From assembly GCA_028286905.1 (NCBI GenBank), contig JAQBQP010000002.1, forward strand, positions 453,358 to 517,357: DNA of 64,000 nt, read 5' to 3'. This document shows positions 18,752-60,199 of the stretch, in pieces. A program made the position numbers and the translations under genes. How positions within the stretch are numbered: the first letter of the stretch is position 1; every line of letters starts with the position of its first letter. This DNA is from Candidatus Doudnabacteria bacterium (lineage in GTDB: Bacteria; Patescibacteriota; Doudnabacteria; UBA920; VMFF01). The notes beneath the pieces are model-generated. The model made no database searches. It saw nothing but the letters and a program-made list of their open reading frames with translations, and was not told the origin of the DNA.

Positions 18752-19273
18752 TTATGCTTTAGATTCTTTAATTGCATTCAATACATTAACGATGCTGCGA
18801 ACATTGCCTGCAAGGACGTTAACAAAACTGGAGATCGGCGCGTTGATTGTACCAACCAATTTGCCAAGCATTTCTTGCTTGCTTGGAAGCGCTGCCAAAG
18901 CACCGACTTCTTCTGCACTCAAGAATTTATTATCCATAACACCAGCCAAAATCTTAACATTCTTGTTTTCTTTTACGAAAGCCGCGAATATTCTTGCTGG
19001 AGCTACTTCATCCAATTTAGAAACACCTAGAACTACAGGAGCCTTAAAATCCATGCCGCTGATATCAACACCATGTTTTTTTAGAGCTCTTCTGATCAAA
19101 GTAATTTTAGCTACTTTGGTGACAATGCCTTCTTTACGAAGATTGCTTCTCAGTTCGTCAATTTTCTTTACAGTTGTGCCGCGGTAATCCGCGAAAACAA
19201 TTGATTTAGCATTTTCTAACTGCGCTTCTAGCTCAGCTAAGATTTGCTCTTTTGCACTTCTTTTAACAGCCAT
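18752..19273 (-). CDS. rplJ: 50S ribosomal protein L10
   Basis: L10 fold. It lies immediately upstream of rplL with a 20-nt spacer. Confidence 0.9.
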   Translation of the reverse strand: MAVKRSAKEQILAELEAQLENAKSIVFADYRGTTVKKIDELRSNLRKEGIVTKVAKITLIRRALKKHGVDISGMDFKAPVVLGVSKLDEVAPARIFAAFVKENKNVKILAGVMDNKFLSAEEVGALAALPSKQEMLGKLVGTINAPISSFVNVLAGNVRSIVNVLNAIKESKA

Positions 19274-32652: not shown

Positions 32653-32659
32653 GGAATGA

Positions 32660-32738
32660 GCATAACAAAAAAACTTTCGATCGGCGAGGTGAACGAAAAA
32701 ATACACCGGCGATACTCTCCTTTCGGATTTCTCGCCGG
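32660..32738 (-). promoter_or_regulatory. terminator hairpin plus TTTTTTTGTTATGCT motif 6 nt before the helicase ATG
   Basis: Hairpin CCGGCGA...TCGCCGG with T-run, then the TTTTTTTGTTATGCT motif, a 6-nt spacer (CATTCC) and the ATG. Confidence 0.45.
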
Positions 32739-32759: not shown

Positions 32760-33278
32760 CTACCAGCGCTTCTGCGCCAGCGTTACCATCAGGACTGTGA
32801 ATGCGATGCCCAGCAGAATGCAGCCGGACGCGATGTTTGCGAACCGTTCGGCGCCGAGCAGAACCATCTGTCCGTGGCACTCATAGAGCATCCAGAGCAG
32901 GCCGCTGGCTGCGAAGATGTCCACGAAGAACATCAGCTTCCGCGACCGCAGCTTCGCCTTGGCGGTTTCCCAGCCCGACTGCTGCTGTTCACCCTCGACG
33001 CTTCGGATGTACGCCGCGATTCGATGGATCGAATAGTCGCCGCGCGCGATCCAGAAGACCATCGTCATTCCGAGCGCGTAGACGAACTTGTACAGCGCAA
33101 CGTTCAGGGTCATCTCAGCAGCGATGAAGCTGAGGAACATGCTGAACGCCAGCAGGAACACTCCGTTGATCATCAGCTTATCTTGCTCGATGATCTCCTT
33201 GCGGAGCTTCTTATTTTCCGCAGCATTCTGCTTCAGTGCCCGCATCTTCTCGTCAACATCCTCGAACATGGGCCTCAC
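32760..33278 (-). CDS. hypothetical membrane protein on a GC-rich insert
   Basis: A roughly 520-bp segment that is strikingly GC-rich relative to its flanks. It has its own TTGACA-17-TATTTT promoter and RBS upstream, and a hairpin with T-run downstream. Confidence 0.5.
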   Translation of the reverse strand: MRPMFEDVDEKMRALKQNAAENKKLRKEIIEQDKLMINGVFLLAFSMFLSFIAAEMTLNVALYKFVYALGMTMVFWIARGDYSIHRIAAYIRSVEGEQQQSGWETAKAKLRSRKLMFFVDIFAASGLLWMLYECHGQMVLLGAERFANIASGCILLGIAFTVLMVTLAQKRW

Positions 33279-33990: not shown

Positions 33991-34365
33991 TTAAAAATTA
34001 TCAAAAAAATCTTTTACTTTCGCCTTAATAGCACTTTCTACTACATCCCGTTTATCCTTAGAAATATCAATTCTTTCAAAATGTTCGTGCCCAGAAAGCG
34101 ATAAGCCAATACTACCGTTAAGGTGCTTCTGTACGTAGCCTTCAAGAACCAACTCATTTTTATCCAAACCCAATGATTGAATTATGCGATTATGGAAATC
34201 CGTTCCTAAATACACATCCCAATTTGATGTGATTATAATTCGCAAATCTCCTTTATCTAAAAAGCGTAAAATCATTTTTTTGTCTTCAGCTGAAGAAACC
34301 CTTATAGTAAAGAATTCTTTCATCGCTTCTATCTCATTTAAGCCTCTGGTTTCAAATTCTGTCAT
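33991..34365 (-). CDS. hypothetical protein (124 aa)
   Basis: ORF track. Confidence 0.35.
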   Translation of the reverse strand: MTEFETRGLNEIEAMKEFFTIRVSSAEDKKMILRFLDKGDLRIIITSNWDVYLGTDFHNRIIQSLGLDKNELVLEGYVQKHLNGSIGLSLSGHEHFERIDISKDKRDVVESAIKAKVKDFFDNF

Positions 34366-34416
34366 GATTTTATAATATCAAAAAAACATCACTCCTACGA
34401 GTGATGTTTTAGATTA

Positions 34417-37009: not shown

Positions 37010-37189
37010 TCAATAATAATAAGGTACCTAATCATTACTGTCAAGTTACTTGGCAAGCATGCAGTTTTCATAACAAAAACTAAAAGCGTAGGCCAAGATG
37101 AAAGAACCTCCGTCAAAACAAAAGAGCCTCGACAAATGAATGTCGGGCTCTTTTCGTTAGCGCATCATGCGCAATTAGAAGTTCCTCCT

Positions 37190-37540
37190 TTACCTTAGAA
37201 CCGGCGCCGGCAACCCGCGGCCCCGAGCGTACCGCCGCGCAAAGAACATACACAGCGGATTAATCGTCCGAACACTGAGGCTCACCCCAAGTACTAAACC
37301 AACCACGGTGACCACCAGCTCCCGCTGCCACGGGATGGGCATTCTCACCAACACCGCTACCGCCATCGAGGTGAACAACGCGACCAGCCCGATGAACGAT
37401 ATGACCATACCCATGATGATTCGGAAGAAGAACGCTTTCTCAACGTACGCTACTCCCGCCATCGATGCCCCAAAGAGAGCCACGAACGCAAAAAAAACAG
37501 GCAACAGGACCAACTCCCACTGGATTAAAAAGCTTTGCAT
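37190..37540 (-). CDS. small membrane protein on a GC-rich insert
   Basis: GC-rich segment. RBS GGAGG before MQSFLIQW.... Three TM helices. A hairpin with T-run follows downstream at about 37140-37170. Confidence 0.45.
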   Translation of the reverse strand: MQSFLIQWELVLLPVFFAFVALFGASMAGVAYVEKAFFFRIIMGMVISFIGLVALFTSMAVAVLVRMPIPWQRELVVTVVGLVLGVSLSVRTINPLCMFFARRYARGRGLPAPVLR

Positions 37541-38510: not shown

Positions 38511-38599
38511 AGTATATTTTTAATTAACATTAGCATATCAAAAAATCATCACAATTACGAATAATGAATTCTTGGCGCCGCTATAAGGACTATTAAAAA

Positions 38600-38650
38600 A
38601 AACAGAGGTGATAAAACTAAAAGCGCGGGACCAAGATGTTTGTCCGCGCT
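38600..38650 (-). terminator. rho-independent terminator after the 38671-39099 gene
   Basis: CAGCGCGGACAAACATCTTGGTCCCGCGCTTTT. Confidence 0.5.
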
Positions 38651-38670
38651 GTTTATTTTGTGGCTTCCTC

Positions 38671-39099
38671 CTACATAATGATTCCGCAGTACCCCGTGCT
38701 CGTACCCTCCAGCCACTCCAATCGATAAAGCGGATGGCTCAAAATGAGCTTACCGCTCTCCCTCTCGAAACGGAAAGGGCAGAAACTCAGCTGTTCAACT
38801 GGCCCCCATGTCCCATCCGGATTGAGGCGCTGCACCGGGAAAGTTACATCCTTCTTCGCTATGGAATCCTGGGCCGTCTTCACATCCGGCGACTGGATCA
38901 ACCGATACCAACGATCCTTCGAGCCCCTTGCAACCACTTCTTCGAAAAGATTCATGGGCCAGGGCTTCGAACTATAAAAAGCTCTGCCGCCGCTTGCTTC
39001 ATCAACGACGATGGGATCGACAAGCGGAGCTTCGCAGTTTGCTACCGCGCCCTTCTTCCGATTCCGATACCAGTTGCTAAAGAACAGTAGGACCCGCAT
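38671..39099 (-). CDS. hypothetical protein on a GC-rich insert
   Basis: GC-rich. RBS AAGGGGG before the ATG. A clean rho-independent terminator follows at about 38600-38650. Confidence 0.45.
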   Translation of the reverse strand: MRVLLFFSNWYRNRKKGAVANCEAPLVDPIVVDEASGGRAFYSSKPWPMNLFEEVVARGSKDRWYRLIQSPDVKTAQDSIAKKDVTFPVQRLNPDGTWGPVEQLSFCPFRFERESGKLILSHPLYRLEWLEGTSTGYCGIIM

Positions 39100-39162
39100 A
39101 TTACCCCCTTAGTTGAACCCAAGTGAGAGATAAATAAAATTACCATGGGTAATGGGAATTGT

Positions 39163-39196
39163 CAAAAGCCCACCTCAATTACAAAGTGGGCTTTTG
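39163..39196. repeat. degenerate copy 0 (hairpin only)
   Basis: CAAAAGCCCACCTCAATTACAAAGTGGGCTTTTG has the same CTCAATTAC loop as copies 1 and 2. Confidence 0.4.
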
Positions 39197-39288
39197 ACAC
39201 GAGTTGTACAGAAAAACTATCCACAAAACACCATATAAAATGATGCGCTCTGGGTAGACGCTCTCGAAGTTTCGAGAGCGCACCGAAT

Positions 39289-39615
39289 TCACGAGATCTT
39301 GAAATATTGATGCCATAACGCCTCTCCTTCCTGATCCAGTGGCAGTCGCAGAATCAGCGGTGGATGATTCCCTGGCAGGATGGTTTCGTCCATGACCAGG
39401 TGTCCGTTTTCCAGATAGAAGCGCCGGGCAACGATCGTACTCTGAACGACCAGAACTCTGGTATGGCGATCCACTATCGCCTGCTTGCTTTCGCCGTGAT
39501 ACACCACGGAGTAGTGCTCTTTCTGGGCGGCGTCCCAAGCCAATGCCCCCAAAACAAATGCGTGCAAGGTCAGAACCAAGAACGCGGCACAGAGTTCTTT
39601 GCAAATCATTTTCAT
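39289..39615 (-). CDS. small secreted protein on a GC-rich insert
   Basis: Signal peptide MKMICKELCAAFLVLTLHAFVLGALA. GC-rich. A strong hairpin follows downstream at about 39245-39280. Confidence 0.4.
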   Translation of the reverse strand: MKMICKELCAAFLVLTLHAFVLGALAWDAAQKEHYSVVYHGESKQAIVDRHTRVLVVQSTIVARRFYLENGHLVMDETILPGNHPPLILRLPLDQEGEALWHQYFKIS

Positions 39616-39720: not shown

Positions 39721-40452
39721 TTACCGCTGCCCTTTAAACAAAGCAACGTGAAATCCAAAATCTTTCCCATACTCACCAATAAATATTGGCACGTAAATTA
39801 AATCTAAAGAAAGTCCTAGCTTCTTTTTATCAGATTTATTAAACGCTTTAAAATTAGTCAGTTTTTGGATATCTACATTAGCCCGAGCCAAATCTTTTTT
39901 ATAGAACGTTTTCCCGGTAAATTCAAAAAGATCTGCTAATCCATTTTGAGTCGGAAATGGCAATTCGAGCGCGCTTAACTTTTCCATTATATATTTTACC
40001 GTATATATTTTTGAATTTCTTTCTAATTCGATAGAAAAAAAGTTATCAGGATTAAAACTTGATACGGAACCCTTTCTTGGCATAATAAGAACTTTATTTA
40101 GTTTAAAATATTTAGCTAAATTTATATGTGCTTTATTAGGTTTGGTCACAATAATTCCGCAGTCGTTACTCTTACTTTTGGTATTATGGAACTCTATAAT
40201 AAAACCTGATTTCTTAAATGTCTTTTTTAGAGATTTCGCCAATTTATGCTCGTAGGTTTTGCCTGGCAAATCAAAATTCCTGTTAAGATCTGCTTCGATG
40301 AATCTTAAATTCTTCTCTACAGCTTTCGGATTTGCGATTAAAGCTTCTAAATTTTTATATTCTTTCCTTTGAAGGCTTTTCACTACAGACACGCCGGTCT
40401 TTTCATTACCATGAGTTCCGCCAAGTATCAAGATTTTATTTTCTATTTTCAT
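39721..40452 (-). CDS. succinylglutamate desuccinylase/aspartoacylase-family zinc hydrolase
   Basis: The GGTHGNE motif is the GxHGNE zinc-binding hallmark of the AstE/AspA family. Start set to MKIENKIL.... Confidence 0.6.
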   Translation of the reverse strand: MKIENKILILGGTHGNEKTGVSVVKSLQRKEYKNLEALIANPKAVEKNLRFIEADLNRNFDLPGKTYEHKLAKSLKKTFKKSGFIIEFHNTKSKSNDCGIIVTKPNKAHINLAKYFKLNKVLIMPRKGSVSSFNPDNFFSIELERNSKIYTVKYIMEKLSALELPFPTQNGLADLFEFTGKTFYKKDLARANVDIQKLTNFKAFNKSDKKKLGLSLDLIYVPIFIGEYGKDFGFHVALFKGQR

Positions 40453-40459
40453 AGCAAAA

Positions 40460-40530
40460 GCATAACAAAAAACCACCTCAATTACGAGGTGGGCTTTTGG
40501 CAGGGATTGAGGGAGCAAGTTAGAATAATA
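40460..40530 (-). repeat. cassette-boundary repeat, copy 1 (full)
   Basis: GCATAACAAAAAA, then hairpin CCACCTCAATTACGAGGTGG, then GCTTTTGGCAGGGATTGAGGGAGCAAGTTAGAAT. Confidence 0.6.
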
Positions 40531-40624
40531 TTAACAAATAAGTGCCGTTGACTTTTACCACAAAACATCATAAAATATCATATTCCTGGCGAACGCCTTG
40601 AACACACTCCAACGGAGGCAACAA

Positions 40625-40981
40625 ATGAAGATGCATATGCCGCGTCTCACCACGATTCTTTCCACCCTTCTCCTGACGGGTTGCGCGGGTTTCTCACGTT
40701 CCTGCTCTTCGTGGAATGCGAGAAACTTCGCAAGCGACTGGGTCGTCGTGCAGTACAAGTTCGACGGATCACCCATCAACTGCTGGACTCTCAAGGGCAC
40801 CAGCGTTTCGAACGAGGGAGGGTCTGACGGCATCTACTGGAAGGACGGGACAAGCGGCCATCTGGTTCACATCTCGGGATGGTACAACCGAGTCCAGGTC
40901 GCCAACAACCAGTTCGCGCAAGCCGCGACGCTGATGGGGGTAGACGCAAGCAAGTGCGCAAACGGCAAATACCAACCGTAA
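40625..40981 (+). CDS. lipoprotein on a GC-rich insert
   Basis: Lipobox LLLTGC. RBS GGAGG. Its own TTGACT-17-TAAAAT promoter sits at about 40548-40576. A terminator follows at about 40990-41040. Confidence 0.5.
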   Translation: MKMHMPRLTTILSTLLLTGCAGFSRSCSSWNARNFASDWVVVQYKFDGSPINCWTLKGTSVSNEGGSDGIYWKDGTSGHLVHISGWYNRVQVANNQFAQAATLMGVDASKCANGKYQP

Positions 40982-41091
40982 CGTTTGTGCCGAGCACCAA
41001 AACCACCAGGTTCTTATTGAGCCTGGTGGTGTTTTATTTAAAATAAGCGATGTGGGTTGCTAGAAGAAGTTAGAACTTCAATTGAATATTC

Positions 41092-41544: not shown

Positions 41545-41582
41545 TTTATTCCGTTATTATTTTAACTGTTGATACCTAAAAA

Positions 41583-41655
41583 GCATAACAAAAAACCAGC
41601 TCCATTACGAGGTGGCTTTGGCACGGGCTATGGGAGCAAGTTGGAACTAGAATTG
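41583..41655 (-). repeat. cassette-boundary repeat, copy 2 (full)
   Basis: GCATAACAAAAAA, then hairpin CCAGCTCCATTACGAGGTGG, then CTTTGGCACGGGCTATGGGAGCAAGTTGGAAC. Confidence 0.6.
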
Positions 41656-42310: not shown

Positions 42311-42390
42311 AATTTTGACCTTTCTTAATAAAGTTTCATTATTTCAACAAAATTTTCTTATCATAAGACGATTATACCATACACTAAAAT

Positions 42391-42422
42391 TACGGGCTGT
42401 GGGAGCAAGTTAGAACTGAAAT
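42391..42422 (-). repeat. cassette-boundary repeat, copy 3 (truncated; no hairpin)
   Basis: TACGGGCTGTGGGAGCAAGTTAGAACTGAAAT. Confidence 0.5.
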
Positions 42423-43631: not shown

Positions 43632-43710
43632 ATATTAGGATTATAGCAATAAAATACTGTAAGCCCCCAAGATATAACACTCAGGGGCTCACAAGTGATC
43701 AGTCTGACGA

Positions 43711-44103
43711 TCAGCAATCTGCCGAAGCCAAAGCGCCGTTCTGAAGCTGAATCTGCTCCAACGGCGACATCGCCAGTAGCTCGCGGGTTGGCGCTGCCAC
43801 AGAACCGCAGCAGTTGTAGAGACCGAAAGCGACGCCGAACTCAGCTTCGCAGATACTGCGAGCGATATCCGTTCCAAGCAGACGGGTGATCTGCTTACCC
43901 AACGCTGTGTTCGGGTCCTGAGGATCCAGGATCTTCGCAGCAGACGCCTTCGTCCTTGCTGCGAGCTCGCCCAGATAAGCGACGCCGAGCGGCAGGTCAC
44001 GCTGAAACGCTTCGAAGAGTGCGCTACGCATCTGACCCTCACTTGCGGTATCCAAATCAACACCGCGCTCGTCCAGCACAGACACGATCGACTGATAAGA
44101 CAT
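43711..44103 (-). CDS. hypothetical protein on a GC-rich insert
   Basis: GC-rich. RBS GGAGGA. It lies 64 nt downstream of the CooC-like gene on the same strand. Confidence 0.45.
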   Translation of the reverse strand: MSYQSIVSVLDERGVDLDTASEGQMRSALFEAFQRDLPLGVAYLGELAARTKASAAKILDPQDPNTALGKQITRLLGTDIARSICEAEFGVAFGLYNCCGSVAAPTRELLAMSPLEQIQLQNGALASADC

Positions 44104-45103: not shown

Positions 45104-45166
45104 AAATGCAAATGATTTGCATTTACTATATACGAGGTCAGGAACAAATGCAAGTGACTTGCATTT
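45104..45166. promoter_or_regulatory. two 21-bp perfect palindromes (AAATGCAAATGATTTGCATTT and AAATGCAAGTGACTTGCATTT) in the divergent promoter
   Basis: Read directly in the 84-bp intergenic region between the CooC-like and Fur-family genes. Positions are within about 2 nt. Confidence 0.5.
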
Positions 45167-45187
45167 AGCTAAACTTTGTGCCATACT

Positions 45188-45595
45188 ATGATTATGGAAA
45201 ACAAAGAGCTGGTAAAATCTTACGGCTTAAAAGCAACCCCCACTCGCCTTTCAGTATTAGCGGCGCTACAGAAATATTCAAAACCTGTGAGTGTATTTGA
45301 TATATTAAAAAACTTGAACAAAAATACTGATCAAACCACAGTATACCGAATACTAAATGTATTCGTTGAGAAAGGTATGATAAAAAAAATTGACCTAAAA
45401 AAAGATTTTTCATTTTTTGAAATCAATGAAGGAAAACACCATCACCATTTGGTGTGTCAAAGTTGTTCCAAAATAAAAGAGATTGAATCTTGCGATATCT
45501 CTGCCATAGAGAAACAAGTGTTAAAAAAAAGTGGTTTCAAAAGTATTGATGAGCATGCTTTAGAGTTTTACGGACTTTGCGAAAACTGCGCATAA
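45188..45595 (+). CDS. Fur-family metalloregulator
   Basis: wHTH plus a metal-site region HHHHLVCQSC...C. The track ORF starts at a TTG; MIMENKEL is the likelier start. Confidence 0.7.
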   Translation: MIMENKELVKSYGLKATPTRLSVLAALQKYSKPVSVFDILKNLNKNTDQTTVYRILNVFVEKGMIKKIDLKKDFSFFEINEGKHHHHLVCQSCSKIKEIESCDISAIEKQVLKKSGFKSIDEHALEFYGLCENCA

Positions 45596-45615
45596 AATTT
45601 TTATAATAGACTATC

Positions 45616-45681
45616 AAAAAATCTCCACCCTATTCGGGTGGAGATTTTTTGGCACGGGCTGTGGGAGGTTAGAACTGAAAT
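45616..45681 (-). repeat. cassette-boundary repeat, copy 4
   Basis: Hairpin AAAAAATCTCCACCCTATTCGGGTGGAGATTTTTT, then GGCACGGGCTGTGGGAGGTTAGAACTGAAAT. Confidence 0.55.
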
Positions 45682-45726: not shown

Positions 45727-46155
45727 ATGTCATTGTGTGACATTGGCATTCACCCTCTTACCTTTATTTCCATGCCTAGCAGAGAAGAACTAGCGGCACA
45801 GGTGATATGGAACAGCGGTGGTTCCGGTCTCGGTATTTGCCGAGTCGCTAACGCCCTGATACGGGCGATGGACCGGCCGGGACCTAACAATCCCGACTAC
45901 CCTTCCATCGTAGCTGTGTCCGATCCACCAGAGAAGTACACGGACGAGGAACTGACGCTGATCGTAGAATTCGCTCAACGTGCAACGGCCAAACACGACG
46001 AGATGTTTCGCTTCCGTCGTGGCGCAAACCTCATACTGTTCGACAAGGAGGAGTGGAACGGAAGAACTGTGTGGATGCGAAAGCGTCTAACATGGGAGTA
46101 CGGTCCGATGTTCTCACCGACGTTAGTGGAAGCAATTGCGTCCATGGATCGGTAA
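45727..46155 (+). CDS. hypothetical protein on a GC-rich insert
   Basis: GC-rich, 142 aa. Confidence 0.45.
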   Translation: MSLCDIGIHPLTFISMPSREELAAQVIWNSGGSGLGICRVANALIRAMDRPGPNNPDYPSIVAVSDPPEKYTDEELTLIVEFAQRATAKHDEMFRFRRGANLILFDKEEWNGRTVWMRKRLTWEYGPMFSPTLVEAIASMDR

Positions 46156-46270
46156 AACCACAAATCACAGGAGGCTGTAGTTCACGTCATTCTTGGCGTG
46201 AGGTCCCGGGGAACAATAGCATGTTCCCCTTTCCTCTAAGCTCATCAATACTGGTGATCTTAGAGAAAAT

Positions 46271-46330
46271 AACCCCCCTCGAAAGGGTGTTTTTTGATAC
46301 GGGCTATGGGAGCAAGTTGGAACCGAAATA
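46271..46330 (-). repeat. cassette-boundary repeat, copy 5
   Basis: Plus-strand read: hairpin, then GATACGGGCTATGGGAGCAAGTTGGAACCGAAAT. It sits between convergent genes. Confidence 0.55.
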
Positions 46331-47015: not shown

Positions 47016-47022
47016 AACCCTA

Positions 47023-47077
47023 GCATAACAAAAAATCCCCACTACGACGAGTGAGGAGTTTTTGGCACGGGGCTTGC
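47023..47077 (-). repeat. cassette-boundary repeat, copy A (nearest tRNA-Trp)
   Basis: Minus-sense read: GCAAGCCCCGTGCCAAAA, then a hairpin, then TTTTTTGTTATGCT. The segment GCCCCGTGCCAAAAA is identical to the tRNA-Trp 3' end plus flank. Confidence 0.6.
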
Positions 47078-47206
47078 AGCTCCTTACAGTCGCTGCATTC
47101 CCTCTTCGTTTTGCTAACGCAAAACAAATCAAAGAAGGTCAGGAATCGAGTCGTATTCCATAGCTACCAAATCAAAAATACTCCATCCTGATGGATGGAG
47201 TATTTT

Positions 47207-47280
47207 TGGCACGGGGCGTAGGAATCGAACCTACGTAAGCGGTTTTGGAGACCGCCGTAATACCACTATACGAGCCCCGC
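47207..47280 (-). tRNA. tRNA-Trp (anticodon CCA), CCA end encoded
   Basis: Hand-folded cloverleaf. Acceptor GCGGGGC/GCCCCGT. Anticodon stem GCGGT/ACCGC with loop CTCCAAA. T-arm GTAGG-TTCGATT-CCTAC. A terminator hairpin follows the 3' end. Confidence 0.8.
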
Positions 47281-47350
47281 ATGATCACACTTAAATTATA
47301 CACTACTTAAGAAAAACAGCTTCCGAGCATATAGCGCGCAAGCTGTTTAA

Positions 47351-47506
47351 TTACTTGGTTTCTTTGTGCAAGGTCATCTTACGTTCATGCTTGCAATATT
47401 TCATGATTTCCAAGCGCTTCTGATTTAGCTTCTTATTCTTTCTAGAATGATAATTCAGGTTTTTACACTCTGTGCATTCTAGCTTTATTAGGTTATCTTG
47501 TGACAT
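47351..47506 (-). CDS. rpmG: 50S ribosomal protein L33
   Basis: Hand translation gives [51 protein letters not shown], which fits the L33 zinc-ribbon pattern. It is below the ORF-track cutoff. Confidence 0.7.
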
Positions 47507-47523
47507 ATTTTCCTATTAGGTTA

Positions 47524-47599
47524 TGGAGCCGGCTGTCGGACTCGAACCGACCACCTACGGTTTACAAAACCGTTGCTCTACCGGATGAGCTAAGCCGGC
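47524..47599 (-). tRNA. tRNA-Thr (anticodon UGU), CCA encoded
   Basis: Hand-folded. Acceptor GCCGGCT/AGCCGGC. Anticodon loop TTTGTAA. T-arm GGTCG-GTTCGAG-TCCGAC. Confidence 0.8.
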
Positions 47600-47656
47600 A
47601 AGTGAATGCCGTAGGTCAAATTAACTACTAAAATTTAACACAAATTCCCAAAACTG

Positions 47657-48124
47657 TCAAAGACTATGAGGCTCGCTTCGTGCCTTATAGACTCTCCAAG
47701 AAGCCTTACCTCTCACTATAATCCAATTAACAGGCTGATCCCATTCTTGTCTTATAAGCTTAAGATCTGAAAATTTTGTACTATCAATAATACCTACTTT
47801 TACCCAATTAGAGGGAATTTTAGAAAGAAAACGATCATACCACCCAGCGCCTTTTCCATGCCTGGTACCATAAACATCAAACATTGTTCCTGGAATAAAA
47901 ACCGATACCGGGCCATTCTTAAATCTAGCTAGACAATTATCTGCCCACTCAAATGGATCACTATTTTTATCTTTTGGAATGACAATGAGATTGTTTTTGT
48001 TTATTTCTAAAGGAAATGATAAATCGTTATAATCAACTTCACTTTTTGTGGGTACGTATAAAACAAACCCCGCGCATTGGGAAAATATTTCTTGTAATTC
48101 TTTTAATGCGGCTACTTCTTCCAT
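47657..48124 (-). CDS. 5-formyltetrahydrofolate cyclo-ligase family protein
   Basis: GTRHGKGAGWYDRFL matches the 5-FCL G-x-G-x-G-(Y/W)YDR motif. It is short, at 155 aa. Confidence 0.55.
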   Translation of the reverse strand: MEEVAALKELQEIFSQCAGFVLYVPTKSEVDYNDLSFPLEINKNNLIVIPKDKNSDPFEWADNCLARFKNGPVSVFIPGTMFDVYGTRHGKGAGWYDRFLSKIPSNWVKVGIIDSTKFSDLKLIRQEWDQPVNWIIVRGKASWRVYKARSEPHSL

Positions 48125-48194
48125 AGATGTATTTTAAAAAAAGATGCTGGAGCGGTGAAACTCCAGCATCGGTGGCAATTGCCCGGCGTTTTGA

Positions 48195-49205
48195 TTAGTG
48201 CTCCATGTGTTTGAGAACCTTCACGTATAACTCCTCCACGACCTTCTCTTGCGCTTTGCCAATCTTGGCGTAGTGATCCAGCCCTGGCGCAGAGTTGACT
48301 TCGAGAACCCAAAATGTACTTGGTTTCTGGCTGATGTCGCCCTCAATCATGAGATCAACGCCGCAAAGGCGCAACCCCATATCACGAGTAAGCTTCACGG
48401 CCAGTTTCCTGAACTCCGGATGCACCTTATCGGTTACATCAACAGAATCGCCCCCAGTGGATAGATTGGCGTTGTCCAAAAGGTAGACCCTCTGACCCTT
48501 TGCAGGGACCGAACGTAAGCTAAGCCCTTGATGGAGCAGCTTTATCGGAATTCGCGGGTCGTCCGCCTTGATTTGGGTGTCTCGACTTGAAGCGACAAAC
48601 TGCCTTTGCTTGATCTTCAAGAGCCGTTCGACTGTGGATTTTCCATCGCCGACAATATTGAGCGGGATGCGCTCGTAGGCAGAGATCACTTTTTTGTCGA
48701 GTACGACCAGGCGATAATCCACCCCAAGTACAGGCTGCTGAACGAGCGCTATTCGATCGCGTTTGAAAACAGCGCGAATAGCTTTGTAGAACTCTCGCTT
48801 GTTGTGGACTAGCGAAACACCGGCGCCTTGGCTGCCGCTGTTCGGCTTCACGATGACCGGAAAACCAATCTTACGTGCGTGCCTATATGCGGCGTCCATA
48901 TTTCTGCGAGGGGCGCCAATCGCTCGGCCCCACTGTTCAGAAAAAAAGGTCTTTGAGCCTGGCACGATCGGGTAACCCATCTCTTTCATGAAGAAGTTCG
49001 AGTAGTCCTTGTCACGAGCGATTTCTGACCCTCCCATTGGGTTCAGATCGAGAGTGTTATAGCGGAAGTAGGAGTGCTGACCACTTTTGAAAGTGATCTG
49101 GCCGACGATTTCCCATTCCGGCTCCATAAGAACAGTCGCCCCAATACGAGGAGCGATCTTCTGCAACATCCTTCCGAGCACTAATGATTCTTTCTTCTTT
49201 TTCAT
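48195..49205 (-). CDS. ATP-grasp ligase (RimK/alpha-L-glutamate-ligase-like)
   Basis: ATP-grasp fold pattern (VIVKPNSGSQGAGV... DLMIE... LEVNSAPGL). Its GC is somewhat above the backbone. Confidence 0.6.
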   Translation of the reverse strand: MKKKKESLVLGRMLQKIAPRIGATVLMEPEWEIVGQITFKSGQHSYFRYNTLDLNPMGGSEIARDKDYSNFFMKEMGYPIVPGSKTFFSEQWGRAIGAPRRNMDAAYRHARKIGFPVIVKPNSGSQGAGVSLVHNKREFYKAIRAVFKRDRIALVQQPVLGVDYRLVVLDKKVISAYERIPLNIVGDGKSTVERLLKIKQRQFVASSRDTQIKADDPRIPIKLLHQGLSLRSVPAKGQRVYLLDNANLSTGGDSVDVTDKVHPEFRKLAVKLTRDMGLRLCGVDLMIEGDISQKPSTFWVLEVNSAPGLDHYAKIGKAQEKVVEELYVKVLKHMEH

Positions 49206-49370
49206 CGTATCTCCTATGACTTGGGCTAAGGAAGCAGAGACTGAAATTTCAGCTTTTTCTGGTTCAAAAACTAATGCAAAGATAGCACTTTATTAGCTTT
49301 TAATCAACTTAATTAGATACCTCTTTTCTAAGATATATGTTATATTTTTAGCGAATCAAAACAGAAATCT

Positions 49371-50645
49371 ATGAACAAATTTGAAAAGTACCACAAAGCA
49401 ATTAATTTTCTTGAAGGCTTAAACAATCTGCCCTTACAAGGAGATTATATGATCGATAAACATCATGCGGATGTGTATCTCAAAAGGATGCGATATTTCC
49501 TTGAACTCCTTGGCAATCCAGACGAAAAAATAAAATTTATACACATAACTGGAACTTCAGGGAAAGGAACAGTTACAAATACAATCCATGAGATATTAAA
49601 TGCTGCAGGCAAGAATGTCGGTTCTTTTACTTCCCCATCTGCCTCTACATCTCTTGAAAAAATTAAAGTAAAAGATAAATACATAGCGCCTGACGAACTT
49701 GCTGTAATTGTTGATTACTTGAAACCTTTCATAGACAAAGCTTACATAGAGGGTCCATATGGCAGACCATCTTATTTCGAGATATTTTTAGCTATTGCGC
49801 TAGTCTACTTTAAAAGACAGAAGTGCGAGTGGGTGGTCTTGGAAGTAGGTCTTGGTGGCAGATACGATGCGACAAATGTAATTAAGAGACCAGTTATTAC
49901 TGCTATTACAAACATTGATTACGATCATACTGAGCTTTTAGGTAAAACCTTAAAGAAAATTGGATTTGATAAGGCGGGAATAATCAAGAAAGGATCCATA
50001 GCTTTCACAACTGAACAACGTCCTTCAATTTTAAAAATATTTAGTGAAATCTCTAAGAAGAAAGGCGTAGAGCTAAATGTGTTATCCAAGGAAAACAGTT
50101 ACAGAAAATACAATGCAGAGTTGGCAACAGCTATTACTGGACGCATTGGTATTCAGGACAAATATATTATCCAAGGAATAAATAGCGCTCGCCTTGTATG
50201 TCGGTTTGAGCTTATACAGGATAAACCGATGGTAGTTCTCGACGGTGCGCATAACCGATCTAAAATAAATACTACAATCTACAATTTAAAGCAGCTAAGC
50301 TTTAAAAAGCTATACTTAATTATTGGGGTTGCAGATAATAAAGATCACATCTCTATTTTAGAGCAAATAATTCCAGAAGCTGACCATATCTTCTTTACTA
50401 GATTTCAAAACAAAGAAAGAAAATGTGCTCACCCTAAAGAACTATTAGAGAAATCTAAAGCATATTTTAAAAAAGGAGTGGAAACAGAAATCTATCTTGA
50501 TCCAGAAGATGCTTTATCTAAAGCTCTAAGACTTGCGAAGACTAATGACCTAATATTGGTTGCTGGCTCCTTCTTCTTAGCAGGTGAGCTACGCAAACGA
50601 TGGTACTCCGAAAATGCAGTATTACAGAAAAGAAAAAGTTTTTAA
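49371..50645 (+). CDS. folC: folylpolyglutamate synthase/dihydrofolate synthase (Mur-ligase family)
   Basis: P-loop TGTSGKGT and a Mur-ligase middle domain (DATNVI..., DGAHN). Confidence 0.75.
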   Translation: MNKFEKYHKAINFLEGLNNLPLQGDYMIDKHHADVYLKRMRYFLELLGNPDEKIKFIHITGTSGKGTVTNTIHEILNAAGKNVGSFTSPSASTSLEKIKVKDKYIAPDELAVIVDYLKPFIDKAYIEGPYGRPSYFEIFLAIALVYFKRQKCEWVVLEVGLGGRYDATNVIKRPVITAITNIDYDHTELLGKTLKKIGFDKAGIIKKGSIAFTTEQRPSILKIFSEISKKKGVELNVLSKENSYRKYNAELATAITGRIGIQDKYIIQGINSARLVCRFELIQDKPMVVLDGAHNRSKINTTIYNLKQLSFKKLYLIIGVADNKDHISILEQIIPEADHIFFTRFQNKERKCAHPKELLEKSKAYFKKGVETEIYLDPEDALSKALRLAKTNDLILVAGSFFLAGELRKRWYSENAVLQKRKSF

Positions 50646-50654
50646 CCCCAAATT

Positions 50655-51188
50655 ATGAAAATTATTTTATTAATGGTTACCTCCCTTGATGGCAAGACAA
50701 CAAGATGGAACGAATCAAGAATATTTCAATGGACATCAAAAGAGGATCAAGATAATTTCTCCTCTCTTATCAAAAAAAAATCTTTGCTTATTATGGGAAG
50801 AAAGACTTTTGATGCTGCTAAAAAAATGATAAAGCTTTCTCCAAAAATATTACACGTAGTTTTCACGACGGAACCTGAAAAGTATCTAGACTTAGTGGTC
50901 CCAGGACAGCTTGAGTTTGTAAACGGTAGTGCTATTAACATTATCAACAAACTTGACGATCGTGGTTATAAAGAAGCACTGCTGCTTGGTGGAGAGCACC
51001 TAAATACGGAATTCTTTAAAGAAAAATTGGTGAATGAAGTGTGGCTTACTCTTGAACCCTATTTATTTGGTATTGGAAATCAGCTAGTCCTCTCCGAAAA
51101 ATTAAATATTGACCTAACTCTTCAGAGTATTACTAAACTTAACAAAAAAGGCACACTTCTTTTAAAATATGAAGCAAACAAGAATTAA
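50655..51188 (+). CDS. RibD C-terminal domain / dihydrofolate-reductase-like protein
   Basis: MKIILLMVTSLDGKTT ... LLIMGRKTF is the YwjB/RibD_C-type DHFR-like fold signature. Confidence 0.55.
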   Translation: MKIILLMVTSLDGKTTRWNESRIFQWTSKEDQDNFSSLIKKKSLLIMGRKTFDAAKKMIKLSPKILHVVFTTEPEKYLDLVVPGQLEFVNGSAINIINKLDDRGYKEALLLGGEHLNTEFFKEKLVNEVWLTLEPYLFGIGNQLVLSEKLNIDLTLQSITKLNKKGTLLLKYEANKN

Positions 51189-51312
51189 GGTCTAATACTT
51201 TTTTAAAAGAATTTCCATTATTTGTATAAAACAACCCTTGCTATTAGCCAATTGCTATGCTAACATGTTTAAAGTCTCGATTAAACAATTAACTATCTGG
51301 AGAATTAAATCC

Positions 51313-51423
51313 ATGTTTATAGACGAAACTGAAGAAAAGCAAGACGACGCTGCTGCTATGCCAGCTGAAGGTGCTGCTGATGAAGCTACACCAGCTGCTG
51401 ATGATACAGAAGCCGCTGCTTAA
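51313..51423 (+). CDS. small acidic Ala-rich peptide (about 36 aa)
   Basis: Reads MFIDETEEKQDDAAAMPAEGAADEATPAADDTEAAA. A GGAG RBS sits about 8 nt upstream. A clean terminator follows at about 51446-51482. Weak call. Confidence 0.25.
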   Translation: MFIDETEEKQDDAAAMPAEGAADEATPAADDTEAAA

Positions 51424-51445
51424 TATTGATTCTCTGAAATCAAAA

Positions 51446-51482
51446 TGAGAAAAGGCGATCGCATTGTGCGGTCGCCTTTTTC
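51446..51482. terminator. bidirectional terminator hairpin
   Basis: AAAAGGCGATCGCATTGTGCGGTCGCCTTTTT sits between convergent genes. Confidence 0.5.
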
Positions 51483-51526
51483 GTTTGCTTTGATATCTAT
51501 CCTCCCTACTTGATGTGCTCGGCTGT

Positions 51527-51811
51527 CTACACGACCGCCATGCCTCGTGGCTGAGCAGCCAATCCGCCGCACTGTACAGCGGGCGGCAGGCCTTCGTGCA
51601 GTCTACGCTGCCACTCGACGACGTCTGCTCGTGTGATTCCCAGGATCTCCACGAACCGATCCATGTCTCCGTCGCAATCGGTGACGAACTGATCGCGCTG
51701 CTGTTGGAACAACGGCAGCGCATTCAGTTCGCCTGCCTTTAGGCGCGCCACGGTTTCCCTGGCCTTGCTCAGCAGCCCTTCGCGAACCGCTTCGAGCGAT
51801 TCTCTTTGCAT
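51527..51811 (-). CDS. hypothetical protein on a GC-rich insert
   Basis: GC-rich. RBS GAGGGGGG before MQRESLEAV.... Confidence 0.35.
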   Translation of the reverse strand: MQRESLEAVREGLLSKARETVARLKAGELNALPLFQQQRDQFVTDCDGDMDRFVEILGITRADVVEWQRRLHEGLPPAVQCGGLAAQPRGMAVV

Positions 51812-51876
51812 AATCGGTGCCCCCCTCGGTGAAACGGTGAGTTGGCTATGCCCTAATTCTATTGCCATCAACAGAA

Positions 51877-52308
51877 TTAGTCAAAGCTTCTTACCGCAAT
51901 CACCAGCGTCAATGGCAGAACGTCGCCAAAGGGGTTAAGTTCGACATACGGTTGCTGCATTTTCCAGCTCCGCTTGTAGAAACCAGGCGGAACTGGTGCT
52001 ACAACCCGCGGCTCGAAGATTACTGAATCGCCGGGTTTTACTTCTGGCAAAAAAATCTTCGCGACTAGGTCTGCCGGTTGAATGCGAACTGATTCGAACC
52101 AGCGGTCTTTCCATACCACGCCGCCGCAATTCCGCAACAGCCATTTCTTCTCGACTACTTGTCCGGGAGTAGCCTGAACTGTGTCGATGTGGAAATAGCT
52201 TTCGCTAAACTTCATGCAGTCATCCGACCCGCGCGAAATATTTATCCGACCCTGAGCGCTACTCGTGATCGGGGCCGCAATAAGCAAAGCGATCAACAAG
52301 TAACGCAT
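51877..52308 (-). CDS. secreted protein on a GC-rich insert
   Basis: Signal peptide MRYLLIALLIAAPITSSAQG. Its own TTGACC-17-TATTCT promoter lies immediately downstream of the tRNA-Thr 3' end. Confidence 0.45.
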   Translation of the reverse strand: MRYLLIALLIAAPITSSAQGRINISRGSDDCMKFSESYFHIDTVQATPGQVVEKKWLLRNCGGVVWKDRWFESVRIQPADLVAKIFLPEVKPGDSVIFEPRVVAPVPPGFYKRSWKMQQPYVELNPFGDVLPLTLVIAVRSFD

Positions 52309-52397
52309 CTATTTCTCCGTTGGGGATTTTTGAGAATACAATAAAAAAACCACGCGGTCAAGCGAGGAAAATTGTTCTATTTACTTCTGGTTATTTC

Positions 52398-52473
52398 TGG
52401 AGCCGTTGATCGGAATTGAACCGATGACCTACTCCTTACCATGGAGTTGCTCTACCAACTGAGCTACAACGGC
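52398..52473 (-). tRNA. tRNA-Thr (anticodon GGU), CCA encoded
   Basis: Hand-folded. Acceptor GCCGTTG/CAACGGC. Anticodon loop ATGGTAA. T-arm GGTTCAATTCC. Confidence 0.8.
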
Positions 52474-52500
52474 ATGTCGCCATTCGACAACTTATGGTTT

Positions 52501-52587
52501 TGGTGGGCGGTGAAGGATTTGCACCTTCGAAGCCGTAGAGGCAGCTGATTTACAGTCAGCTCCGTTTGACTACTTCGGTAACCGCCC
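52501..52587 (-). tRNA. tRNA-Tyr (anticodon GUA), long variable arm, CCA encoded
   Basis: Hand-folded. Anticodon loop CTGTAAA. T-arm GAAGG-TGCAAAT-CCTTC. About 87 nt. Confidence 0.75.
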
Positions 52588-59053: not shown

Positions 59054-60199
59054 TTATTGTGCCGTAACAGTGTTAGCAGGAGGAACTATTTCAATCCAAA
59101 TCTGACCGCGGTTTAAAGCAATCTCATTACCGGTTTGGTCAAAATATTTTGTGCGACCATCAACCAGTTTCCAGGTACCGTGAATTACCCCGCCATCCAT
59201 ATAAACATCAGCGTCACCGCCCTCGCGAGTACCCATGCTGATCGCATAAAGAGTGTCGGATTTTACCGGCCAATTACGGACGCGCTGCACTATAAGATCT
59301 TTAGCATTTACGCTTTTATTATTACCAGCGTCGATTGTGGCCACACCAGCGTTATATCTTTTATATGTGTTTGTTTTAGAGTCATAAAGCCATTTCACAG
59401 TGTAAGCCGGCAAAGAAAAATTTATGTTTATCTTTGATGCAGTTGGTTGCGCTAAAGCGGCATCGTCTTTAAAAATGTAATCGCTGTAAGTTTTTGTGGC
59501 GCTAAATTTATCATGCTTAGCCATCGCAAACAATTTGTCAGTAGAACTATAAGTGTTATGCGGGGGCAAGCGCGGTGGAATACGGGTCATGTAAGCGCCG
59601 TTCACAAACTGATCCGCATCAGACAGTCCAGGAATGCCTTGCTTTAAATAATACAAGGCGTCACTATTGCCACCGACGTGGGCAAAGATTGCCCCTAGTT
59701 CTTGTGCCCAATCATTAAAATATGTTCTAGCGCTGCGAATTGGCCCGATTGATTTAACTTGTTGGGTTTGGAAAACCGCCAGGAATCGCGTAATGCCGCC
59801 TTCTGCCAAAGCTTCGTAGACAATATCTGCCTGAGAAAGTCCGGATTGCGGTCGAGCGGCAGGAAGATTTTCAATCACTACTGCAAAAGGACGCTGCACC
59901 AAAGCGCTTGGAGTCATTACGCCATTTATAGCAGGGATTTTATCAGCATTGGCTAAACTGTTTTGATAATCGCTTTGGGATTGAAAGATTTTTGAATCTT
60001 GTTCCGCTGCAGAGCCAGAAACGGTTTTAATGCTTTTCTTTGTAGCAGCGTGAACCATAGCGAAAATGCCAACAAAAATTATCAAAGCGGCAATGCCAAT
60101 GAATAAGTTTTTTCGTGGCTTATTTAGGTTTTTACTTGATCGATTCGAATAGCCTTGCATAAAGTCATTATAACATATCAAAAATAAGCGATCGCACAA
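59054..60199 (-). CDS. secreted/anchored protein, possibly DUF3048 (YerB-like)
   Basis: N-terminal TM anchor, 381 aa. Its stop abuts the deacetylase start. Weak call. Confidence 0.35.
   Translation of the reverse strand: MCDRLFLICYNDFMQGYSNRSSKNLNKPRKNLFIGIAALIIFVGIFAMVHAATKKSIKTVSGSAAEQDSKIFQSQSDYQNSLANADKIPAINGVMTPSALVQRPFAVVIENLPAARPQSGLSQADIVYEALAEGGITRFLAVFQTQQVKSIGPIRSARTYFNDWAQELGAIFAHVGGNSDALYYLKQGIPGLSDADQFVNGAYMTRIPPRLPPHNTYSSTDKLFAMAKHDKFSATKTYSDYIFKDDAALAQPTASKININFSLPAYTVKWLYDSKTNTYKRYNAGVATIDAGNNKSVNAKDLIVQRVRNWPVKSDTLYAISMGTREGGDADVYMDGGVIHGTWKLVDGRTKYFDQTGNEIALNRGQIWIEIVPPANTVTAQ

Follow-up and report, generated by a model that had tools for sequence, protein, structure and literature searches.

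A candidate extended -10 promoter for leaderless transcripts, repeated as the tail of a tRNA-Trp-linked terminator-promoter module in a Doudnabacteria genome

Why does one short sequence recur letter for letter between genes of a small genome, and why does it so often end at the same distance from a start codon? This question is raised by a stretch of 64,000 nucleotides (nt) from an uncultured member of Candidatus Doudnabacteria (Patescibacteria/candidate phyla radiation, CPR), a metagenome-assembled genome of about 38-40% GC (contig JAQBQP010000002.1, positions 453,358 to 517,357). The whole stretch is referred to here as the window, and all coordinates are those of the window. On the minus strand, positions 40472-40459 read TTTTTTGTTATGCT, followed by tttgct and by the ATG at 40452 of an AstE-like gene. 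We propose, at a probability of about 0.7, that the motif ends in an extended -10 promoter for transcripts starting at the ATG and that it recurs because it is the tail of a terminator-promoter module copied between the genes downstream of tRNA-Trp.

The repeated motif and its distance to the start codon

The 9-mer TGTTATGCT occurs four times in the window, each time on the minus strand, at 32659, 40459, 41582 and 47022. Taken alone it is mildly unusual, as 0.87 occurrences are expected and 3 of 100 shuffled sequences reach four. The 14-mer TTTTTTGTTATGCT is exact at the same four sites and a one-mismatch copy, GATATGCT, lies at 38532; with up to one mismatch allowed only 0.13 copies are expected and none of 100 shuffles reaches five. 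The repetition of the motif on the minus strand before several genes, noted in a preliminary description of the window, is therefore confirmed. Chance would account for the motif if the T-runs of terminators sometimes precede any -10-like hexamer, and both the marginal enrichment of the 9-mer and three unrelated genomes (L016, L073 and L034) that also show a terminator followed by TTTTTTGTTATGCT speak for it. The numbers for the 14-mer effectively refute this explanation, and the copies also have the loop TCGTAAT and a further conserved segment, P5, in common; we regard chance as scarcely credible.

Three copies have exactly 6 nt between the end of the hexamer TATGCT and an ATG that lacks a Shine-Dalgarno (SD) sequence. 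These ATGs are the starts of the AstE-like gene, of a methyltransferase gene and of a PIF1 helicase gene, and the three 6-nt spacers differ in sequence (tttgct, agggtt and cattcc, respectively). The motif stands 37 nt from the ATG (41544) of a VOC gene, the one-mismatch copy 21 nt from the ATG (38510) of the open reading frame (ORF) downstream of it, and a variant at 37067-37079 precedes the ATG (37009) of a MarR gene by 57 nt. The spacings that the preliminary description had given for the AstE-like, methyltransferase, helicase, VOC and MarR genes are right, as is its statement that the three close copies come without an SD sequence. The element in front of the AstE-like gene is laid out as follows.

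40459-40467, minus strand: extended -10 TGtTATGCT of the AstE-like gene, with the hexamer at 40459-40464, the spacer at 40453-40458 and the ATG at 40450-40452

Like the extended -10 promoters of sigma-70, the motif carries TG one base 5' of a TAnnnT hexamer, in all four exact copies, and has no usable -35, because the preceding terminator hairpin occupies that space. The hexamer keeps A2 and T6 of the TATAAT consensus. Unlike a typical extended -10, TATGCT is weaker than consensus and the promoter is predicted from sequence. We suggest that TGTTATGCT would act as a sigma-70-type extended -10, in which TGn is joined to a hexamer that retains the critical A2 and T6. By established promoter geometry a -10 hexamer spans positions -12 to -7; given the six bases between hexamer and ATG, +1 would fall on the A of the ATG. 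RNA polymerase would start at or next to this A, and the resulting mRNAs would be leaderless.

Are these ATGs the true start codons? Comparison with homologues and, in the helicase, the position of a domain indicate that all three are real starts. Five homologues of the AstE-like protein all begin at the residue aligned to ATG 40452, and at 242-244 amino acids (aa) they align from this ATG with the 243 aa that it opens. The methyltransferase has 227 aa from ATG 47015 against 224-226 aa in its homologues, and the deposited annotation has the same ATG. In the helicase (ATG 32652) the PIF1 domain begins at residue 11. The deposited annotation of the AstE-like gene (39721-40518, minus strand, 265 aa) starts at a TTG inside the terminator hairpin, 22 codons too early; the leaderless architecture probably misled the choice of start codon.

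Start-site geometry in the window and in the lineage

If the 6-nt distance has a function, is it confined to the repeated motif? We took all ORFs of 100 aa or more (83, a mechanical set that includes some spurious ones) and compared their first ATGs with 369 internal ATGs. TGnTAnnnT ends exactly 6 nt before 10 of the 83 first ATGs and before none of the 369 internal ATGs (Fisher p = 2.7e-8). At any other distance from first ATGs it is found 0-3 times, and 10 of its 26 occurrences within 30 nt of these ATGs are at spacing 6 (p = 4e-9). The hexamer TAnnnT by itself ends at spacing 6 before 15 of the first ATGs and one internal ATG (p = 4e-11), and TG precedes 10 of these 15 hexamers, compared with a background frequency of 0.059 (p = 1e-9). 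Seven of the ten TGnTAnnnT starts have a different -10 of their own, i.e., they are not copies of the motif. Taken over the window, the distances show a sharp peak at 6 nt, and the idea in the preliminary description that an extended -10 before an SD-less ATG implies a leaderless mRNA gains support from these statistics (p = 3e-8 for the spacing; TG in 10 of 15).

When the 60 nt upstream of 62 plausible starts are listed, the geometry of the AstE-like gene is seen at many unrelated genes without an SD sequence, among them the following.

dnaX: TGCTATAAT (TGcTATAAT), 6 nt, ATG
prfA: TGTTACAAT (TGtTACAAT), 6 nt, ATG
mltG: TGCTAAAGT (TGcTAAAGT), 6 nt, ATG
NRAMP gene: TGCTATAAT (TGcTATAAT), 6 nt, ATG
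BAX-inhibitor gene: TGCTAGAAT (TGcTAGAAT), 6 nt, ATG
ORF starting at 60160: TGTTATAAT (TGtTATAAT), 6 nt, ATG
ORF starting at 34365: TGATATTAT (TGaTATTAT), 6 nt, ATG

Two further promoter-like sequences belong to genes near the motif. The first is independent of the variant motif of MarR. The second had been given in the preliminary description to a GC-rich gene at 43711-44103; it belongs in front of YibE/F, and the ATG (44103) of the GC-rich ORF (minus strand) is itself preceded by GGAGG.

37013-37044, minus strand: own promoter of MarR; TTGACA, 17 nt, TATTAT, 6 nt, ATG 37009
43640-43648, minus strand: TGCTATAAT, 8 nt 5' of the YibE/F ATG 43631, after a terminator-like hairpin at 43657-43694

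Hand curation of 57 starts gives 17 that are leaderless-like and 12 that are SD-like, and other genes of the window have clear GGAG/AAGG sites. These sites bear on a second explanation, in which the TA-rich hexamer is an RNA-level, non-SD ribosome-binding or enhancer signal, as in Bacteroidota 'group B', and the mRNAs are leadered. Ribosome-binding sites do also sit at this distance (PMC6028130). The hexamers of dnaX and the NRAMP gene lie 26-39 nt after the preceding stop with no terminator between, which fits such a signal as well. Nevertheless, the positions conserved in the hexamer are A2 and T6 of the Pribnow box, the GGAG/AAGG sites at other genes argue that an anti-SD mechanism is present, and MarR has a perfect TTGACA at 17 nt. 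The frequency of TG one base 5' of the hexamer likewise argues for transcription: TG is contacted by the sigma factor of RNA polymerase, and no role in ribosome binding is known to us. We consider a ribosomal signal very unlikely.

The same geometry appears outside this genome. Nine other Patescibacteria loci, 79 kb in total, have TGnTAnnnT 7, 4, 3 and 4 times at spacings 6, 7, 8 and 9 from first ATGs, and 0, 1, 0 and 0 times at these spacings from internal ATGs. The peak can be seen in contigs L125, L127, L179, L182, L119 and L121. In L182, which is among the closest methyltransferase homologues (75% identity), TGGTATAAT is followed by 6 nt and ATG; in a Saccharimonadia contig (L016, 3687-3740) a terminator is followed by TTTTTTTGTTATGCT, 6 nt and ATG. 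A spacing peak in unrelated Patescibacteria loci suggests a lineage-wide leaderless habit, and the geometry appears to be a genome-wide and lineage-wide custom, not a device of TTTTTTGTTATGCT or of acquired cassettes. No description of leaderless genes in Patescibacteria was found in the literature searched.

Genomes with frequent leaderless transcription form 'group C' of GeneMarkS-2, in which 6-8 nt separate the Pribnow box from the start and leaderless transcripts make up 25-50%; examples are Actinobacteria and Deinococcus-Thermus, including M. tuberculosis and D. deserti (PMC6028130). The window resembles this group. Its -10 peak is at exactly 6 nt, the hexamer is followed by an SD-less spacer and ATG at the AstE-like, methyltransferase and helicase starts, and leaderless-like genes are mixed with SD-led ones, so that roughly 30%, about a third, of this genome's genes would be started by predicted leaderless promoters. 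It departs from the group as described in its host, a Doudnabacteria genome at about 38-40% GC, and in that the promoters are mostly of the extended -10 (TGn) type. The leaderless promoter belongs to a known kind; the more unusual feature is the repeated module, linked to tRNA-Trp, in which the motif is found.

The junction module and tRNA-Trp

According to a repeat finder, a longer repeat (families D1-D5 and D7) ends in the motif. This repeat is a module of about 65-70 nt with the motif as its 3' tail; the preliminary description had overlooked it, and the 5' part of the module copies the 3' end of tRNA-Trp. Read on the minus strand, the full module consists of P5 (GTTCYAACTTGCTCCCAYAGCCCGTGCCA), an A-run, a hairpin, a T-run and G(T/A)TATGCT. 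P5 is conserved over 28-30 nt, and its last 12-15 nt are the tRNA-Trp 3' end (CCCGTGCCA and the A-run). Every copy, full or partial, has minus-strand orientation and falls between 32.6 and 47.1 kb, directly downstream of tRNA-Trp.

40459-40526, minus strand: full module; P5 ATTCTAACTTGCTCCCTCAATCCCTGCCA (40498-40526), A-run, hairpin (-17.4 kcal/mol, z = -5.4; match in a terminator scan at 40492-40473), T-run, -10 tail
41582-41648, minus strand: full module; P5 AGTTCCAACTTGCTCCCATAGCCCGTGCCA (41619-41648), hairpin (-10.7 kcal/mol), TTTTTTGTTATGCT; 37 nt 5' of the VOC ATG 41544
45608-45676, minus strand: full copy with variant tail; P5 AGTTCTAACC-TCCCACAGCCCGTGCCA, 16-bp hairpin, A/U-run pairs included (-26.9 kcal/mol as RNA, -18.6 kcal/mol as DNA), tail TTTTTTGATAGTCT
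47022-47073, minus strand: tRNA core, hairpin and tail; of P5 only the core GCCCCGTGCCAAAAA, 15 nt identical to the tRNA-Trp 3' end; hairpin (-15.1 kcal/mol), TTTTTTGTTATGCT; 6 nt to the methyltransferase ATG 47015
38532-38568, minus strand: hairpin and tail; loop TCGTAAT, tail TTTTTTGATATGCT; ATG 38510 is 21 nt away
32659-32693, minus strand: degenerate copy; keeps the 5' stem/loop start CACCTCG, the T-run and TGTTATGCT; no stable hairpin (-6.9 kcal/mol, z = -0.08); 6 nt to the PIF1 helicase ATG 32652
34372-34410, minus strand: hairpin, T-run and TGaTATTAT, 6 nt to ATG 34365; same architecture, different -10
39163-39196, minus strand: hairpin only (-26.7 kcal/mol), stem and loop related to the 40459 copy (family D5), no tail
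46272-46324, minus strand: P5 GGTTCCAACTTGCTCCCATAGCCCGTATCA, beginning 7 nt after the methyltransferase stop, and a weak hairpin; no -10 tail
42390-42417, minus strand: P5 only, AGTTCTAACTTGCTCCCACAGCCCGTAA, 23 nt after the YibE/F stop; then TGGTATAAT, 6 nt, ATG
47173-47206, minus strand: native tRNA-Trp terminator, 16 bp with A/U-run pairs (-24.4 kcal/mol); then GATTTGGTAGCT
47207-47280, minus strand: tRNA-Trp(CCA) gene; the modules repeat its 3' end CCCCGTGCCA

As RNA, eight of the ten copies form a stable hairpin (-10.7 to -26.9 kcal/mol), and those at 46272 and 32659 do not fold. Given that the stable hairpins have different stem sequences, the pairing itself appears to be maintained. Several of them are also terminator-like in a consensus scan, and a hairpin followed by a T-run, the mark of an intrinsic terminator, is present at 40459, 47022, 41582, 38532, 45608, 34372 and tRNA-Trp and lacking at 32659 and 46272. 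The terminator-like hairpin placed before the motif in the preliminary description is therefore real at 40459, 47022 and 41582 and missing from the helicase copy at 32659. The role of an UP-like element, assigned there to the T-tract, does not stand: the T-tract is the U-run of the preceding terminator, and core genes with the same promoter type have none. In Rfam only the four tRNAs of the window exceed the gathering threshold, and at E up to 10 the modules give chance-level matches only.

Where a stop codon precedes, the modules begin 7-41 nt after it, and three of them end 6 nt before the next ATG. Each module probably ends the transcript of the upstream gene and restarts transcription at the next ATG from an extended -10 that is independent of a -35. 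The proposal of a compact terminator-promoter module reused at cassette boundaries is correct in that the terminator abuts the promoter and the pair is reused between genes, but the geometry is not restricted to acquired cassettes, as dnaX, prfA, mltG and the NRAMP gene have it as well.

The link to tRNA-Trp rests on several observations. The gene ends in ...CCTACGCCCCGTGCCA, followed by an A-run, a 16-bp hairpin, a T-run and GATTTGGTAGCT, and this 3' region aligns to the modules along their whole length. The best match to P5 outside the modules, anywhere in the window, is the tRNA-Trp 3' end, with 12 nt exact, a match that none of 2000 shuffles reaches. tRNA-Trp is the only one of the four tRNA genes with copies of its 3' end in the window: as would be expected of attachment (att) repeats, CCCGTGCCAAAA (12 nt; 15 nt at 47022-47073) is found downstream three times exactly and three times in degenerate form, always on the minus strand. 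A metagenome tRNA-Trp gene (L131) ends in ...CTCAGCCCGTGCCA and is closer to P5 than the resident gene is.

Could the motif be nothing more than repeated DNA that ends an att-like or duplicated junction, while its -10 likeness and 6-nt distance are by-products and the genes are transcribed from elsewhere? It is embedded in a longer repeat, four copies identical over 14 nt are better explained by common descent than by selection for promoter strength, TATGCT is a sub-optimal hexamer, and two copies are off spacing 6. Yet three of the five copies keep this spacing, which is enriched genome-wide for unrelated -10s; the spacers differ in sequence while the distance is kept, and the terminator hairpin directly upstream leaves no room for another promoter. 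These features make it unlikely that the motif is repeated DNA and nothing else. Nor do the modules look like a small non-autonomous mobile element, of the miniature inverted-repeat transposable element (MITE) or repetitive extragenic palindromic (REP) type, that carries an outward promoter and inserts between genes. The repeat is indeed short, intergenic and multi-copy, with an internal hairpin and a weak terminal similarity (TAAC...GTTA). Against such an element, there are no terminal inverted repeats above 4 nt and no target-site duplications, the copies are all in the orientation of tRNA-Trp and within 15 kb downstream of it, the end of P5 equals the tRNA 3' end, and no copies are found in the viral and metagenome collections scanned. 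We consider a mobile element of this type most unlikely.

Two small ORFs lie beside the modules. The ATG after the P5 copy at 42390 opens a mini-ORF of six codons, MIRKFC and stop (42344-42379, minus strand), 5' of the HMBD-MauE gene, which has its own AAGG site; the mini-ORF could be a leaderless leader peptide, or the promoter could simply be a leadered one. Between the tRNA-Trp terminator and the first module, 47081-47172 (minus strand) holds a small hairpin and a 10-codon ORF (47129-47161), MEYDSIPDLL and stop, that has ATGGAAT in common with the methyltransferase start. This segment may be an emptied or decayed unit.

Origin of the modules and of the gene island

How did the modules come to lie between these genes? 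The island downstream of tRNA-Trp is 16 kb long, and in it the modules separate short units of one to a few genes, 0.65-3.3 kb each: the methyltransferase; a reversed GC-rich ORF; a block of Fur, ParA-like and YibE/F genes; the HMBD-MauE protein; the VOC gene with a reversed GC-rich lipoprotein gene; and the AstE-like gene. In islands that target tRNA genes, direct repeats of the tRNA 3' end bound tandem integrative elements (accretion arrays and remnants like cis-mobilizable elements, CIMEs). The modules share with such elements their 12-15 nt copies of the tRNA-Trp 3' end, which have the orientation of the tRNA, lie downstream of it and separate unrelated gene blocks, some of deviant GC content. 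They differ in that the blocks are only 0.65-3.3 kb, no integrase is found among the window ORFs checked, and the junction adds a non-tRNA arm, a terminator and a promoter.

One tentative view of the modules is that site-specific insertion took place repeatedly at the 3' end of tRNA-Trp and left att-type junctions behind; alternatively, the terminator region of tRNA-Trp may have been duplicated locally. By insertion, an internal junction would be composed of the P arm of a newer insert, a shared core and the P' arm of an older insert. Such a scheme fits because only the core is tRNA-like and because P5 and the hairpin/tail vary independently, with P5 lacking a tail at 46272 and 42390 and the tail lacking P5 at 38532 and 32659. 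Several findings argue against att-type junctions: no recombinase was recognised among the window ORFs checked, relatives of the module did not turn up in the collections scanned, some GC discontinuities are not at modules, and the methyltransferase is a widespread Patescibacteria gene that is found in core operons elsewhere.

Going further, the island could be an integron-like gene-capture array, in which a recombinase encoded elsewhere in the genome would have inserted short cassettes successively at the 3' end of tRNA-Trp, each junction being a hybrid attP-like site made of the P5 arm, the core CCCGTGCCA, and the terminator with the leaderless promoter. This we find doubtful. The units do resemble integron cassettes, as they are short, mostly single-gene and in one orientation, with a site of about 65-70 nt from stop to next start. 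Integron cassettes are typically promoterless, whereas each unit here has its own predicted promoter and terminator, and the R''/L''/L'/R' symmetry is absent. An attC site is rejected, as single-stranded DNA folds of both strands pair only the terminator stem and leave the 26-30 nt P5 arm without a partner. intI was seen neither among the window ORFs (by eye) nor in Pfam, PHROGs and NCBIfam scans of 20 ORFs, and by eye P5 shows no 11-6-11 palindrome of the Xer/dif type. We found no evidence for mobility of the island units.

Several observations weigh against a tRNA-Trp-linked leaderless promoter module, in addition to the spurious ORFs within the start statistics. TATGCT agrees with TATAAT at only 4 of 6 positions. 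The copies 37 nt from the VOC ATG and 21 nt from that of ORF 38510 make clear that the motif is not always leaderless, and the tail-less P5 copies at 46272-46324 and 42390-42417 that the parts of the module are separable. The similarity to tRNA-Trp is short, 12-15 nt. No recombinase was recognised among the window ORFs by eye, and no integrase or recombinase in the Pfam, PHROGs and NCBIfam scans of the 20 ORFs of the island and the tRNA flank. Related modules did not turn up elsewhere: two module patterns had no matches in viral contigs; a 20-mer of P5 had none in metagenome contigs, and a looser pattern there had 49, among them just two true tRNA-Trp genes with terminators, L131 and L141, and no related module. 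In genome contigs, TGCCAAAN{12,40}TTTTTTGWTATGCT gave at least 118 matches, almost all of them chance or coding, and no related module is among the matches listed, nor is the source genome itself.

The relatives of the island genes stand in other surroundings. The closest AstE homologues are only 44% identical and lie in conserved contexts outside any island; methyltransferase orthologues (65-77% identical) are in core operons or alone, with no modules; and in relatives the orthologues of 5-formyltetrahydrofolate (5-FTHF) cyclo-ligase (61-69% identity) are not beside tRNA-Trp and have no modules. Plasmid and phage collections contain nothing near-identical to the island, each of the exact proteins looked up is recorded on a single contig, and no recombinase emerges when ten ORFs of the island, nine of which lack a Pfam family, are scanned with PHROGs and NCBIfam.

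The island and its flank have some further features. Patches of 55-62% GC, 200-1000 bp long, stand out from the genome of about 38% GC at 32800-33200, 37200-37400, 38600-39600, 40600-41000, 43800-44000, 45800-46200 and 51400-51800, and may be foreign fragments; modules do not bound all of them. Small ORFs without a family match lie in several patches, and two of these ORFs, 40598-40981 (lipoprotein-like) and 45727-46155, run on the opposite strand. The GC-rich ORF at 43711-44103 (minus strand, 130 aa) has weak, sub-threshold matches to SCO5389 (NCBIfam) and to the Pfam 'NucS shadow ORF', both at E of about 2e-5; SCO5389 is a Streptomyces-style locus name, and the match may therefore hint at an actinobacterial origin. 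The Fur-family gene (plus strand, ATG 45188) and the ParA-like gene (minus strand, ATG 45184) are head to head at 45106-45190, and as their start codons almost overlap, their promoters must lie in each other's coding sequence. tRNA-Trp usually stands in the order tRNA / tuf / rpmG / tRNA-Trp / secE-nusG-rplKAJL. This neighbourhood is broken up (47207-52587 and 18752-19273, both minus strand): among the window ORFs neither one of EF-Tu size (about 394 aa) nor a secE-nusG-rplK-rplA block was recognised, the only L10-like ORF recognised by eye is 28 kb from tRNA-Trp, and folate genes and GC-rich patches lie between the tRNA genes.

What do the motif and its module mean for the biology of these bacteria? 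If the integron-like array were true, every captured gene, the GC-rich foreign ones included, would arrive insulated and self-expressed; the tRNA-Trp-linked array would be of wider interest only if it is a recombination system, and is at present a lead rather than a result. With such junctions of terminator and promoter, a very compact genome would keep neighbouring genes insulated from each other in about 40 nt. If about a third of the genes of Doudnabacteria and other Patescibacteria are leaderless, the calling of start codons in these genomes needs a leaderless model, and, if true, the promoters of these uncultured organisms would be predictable directly from sequence.

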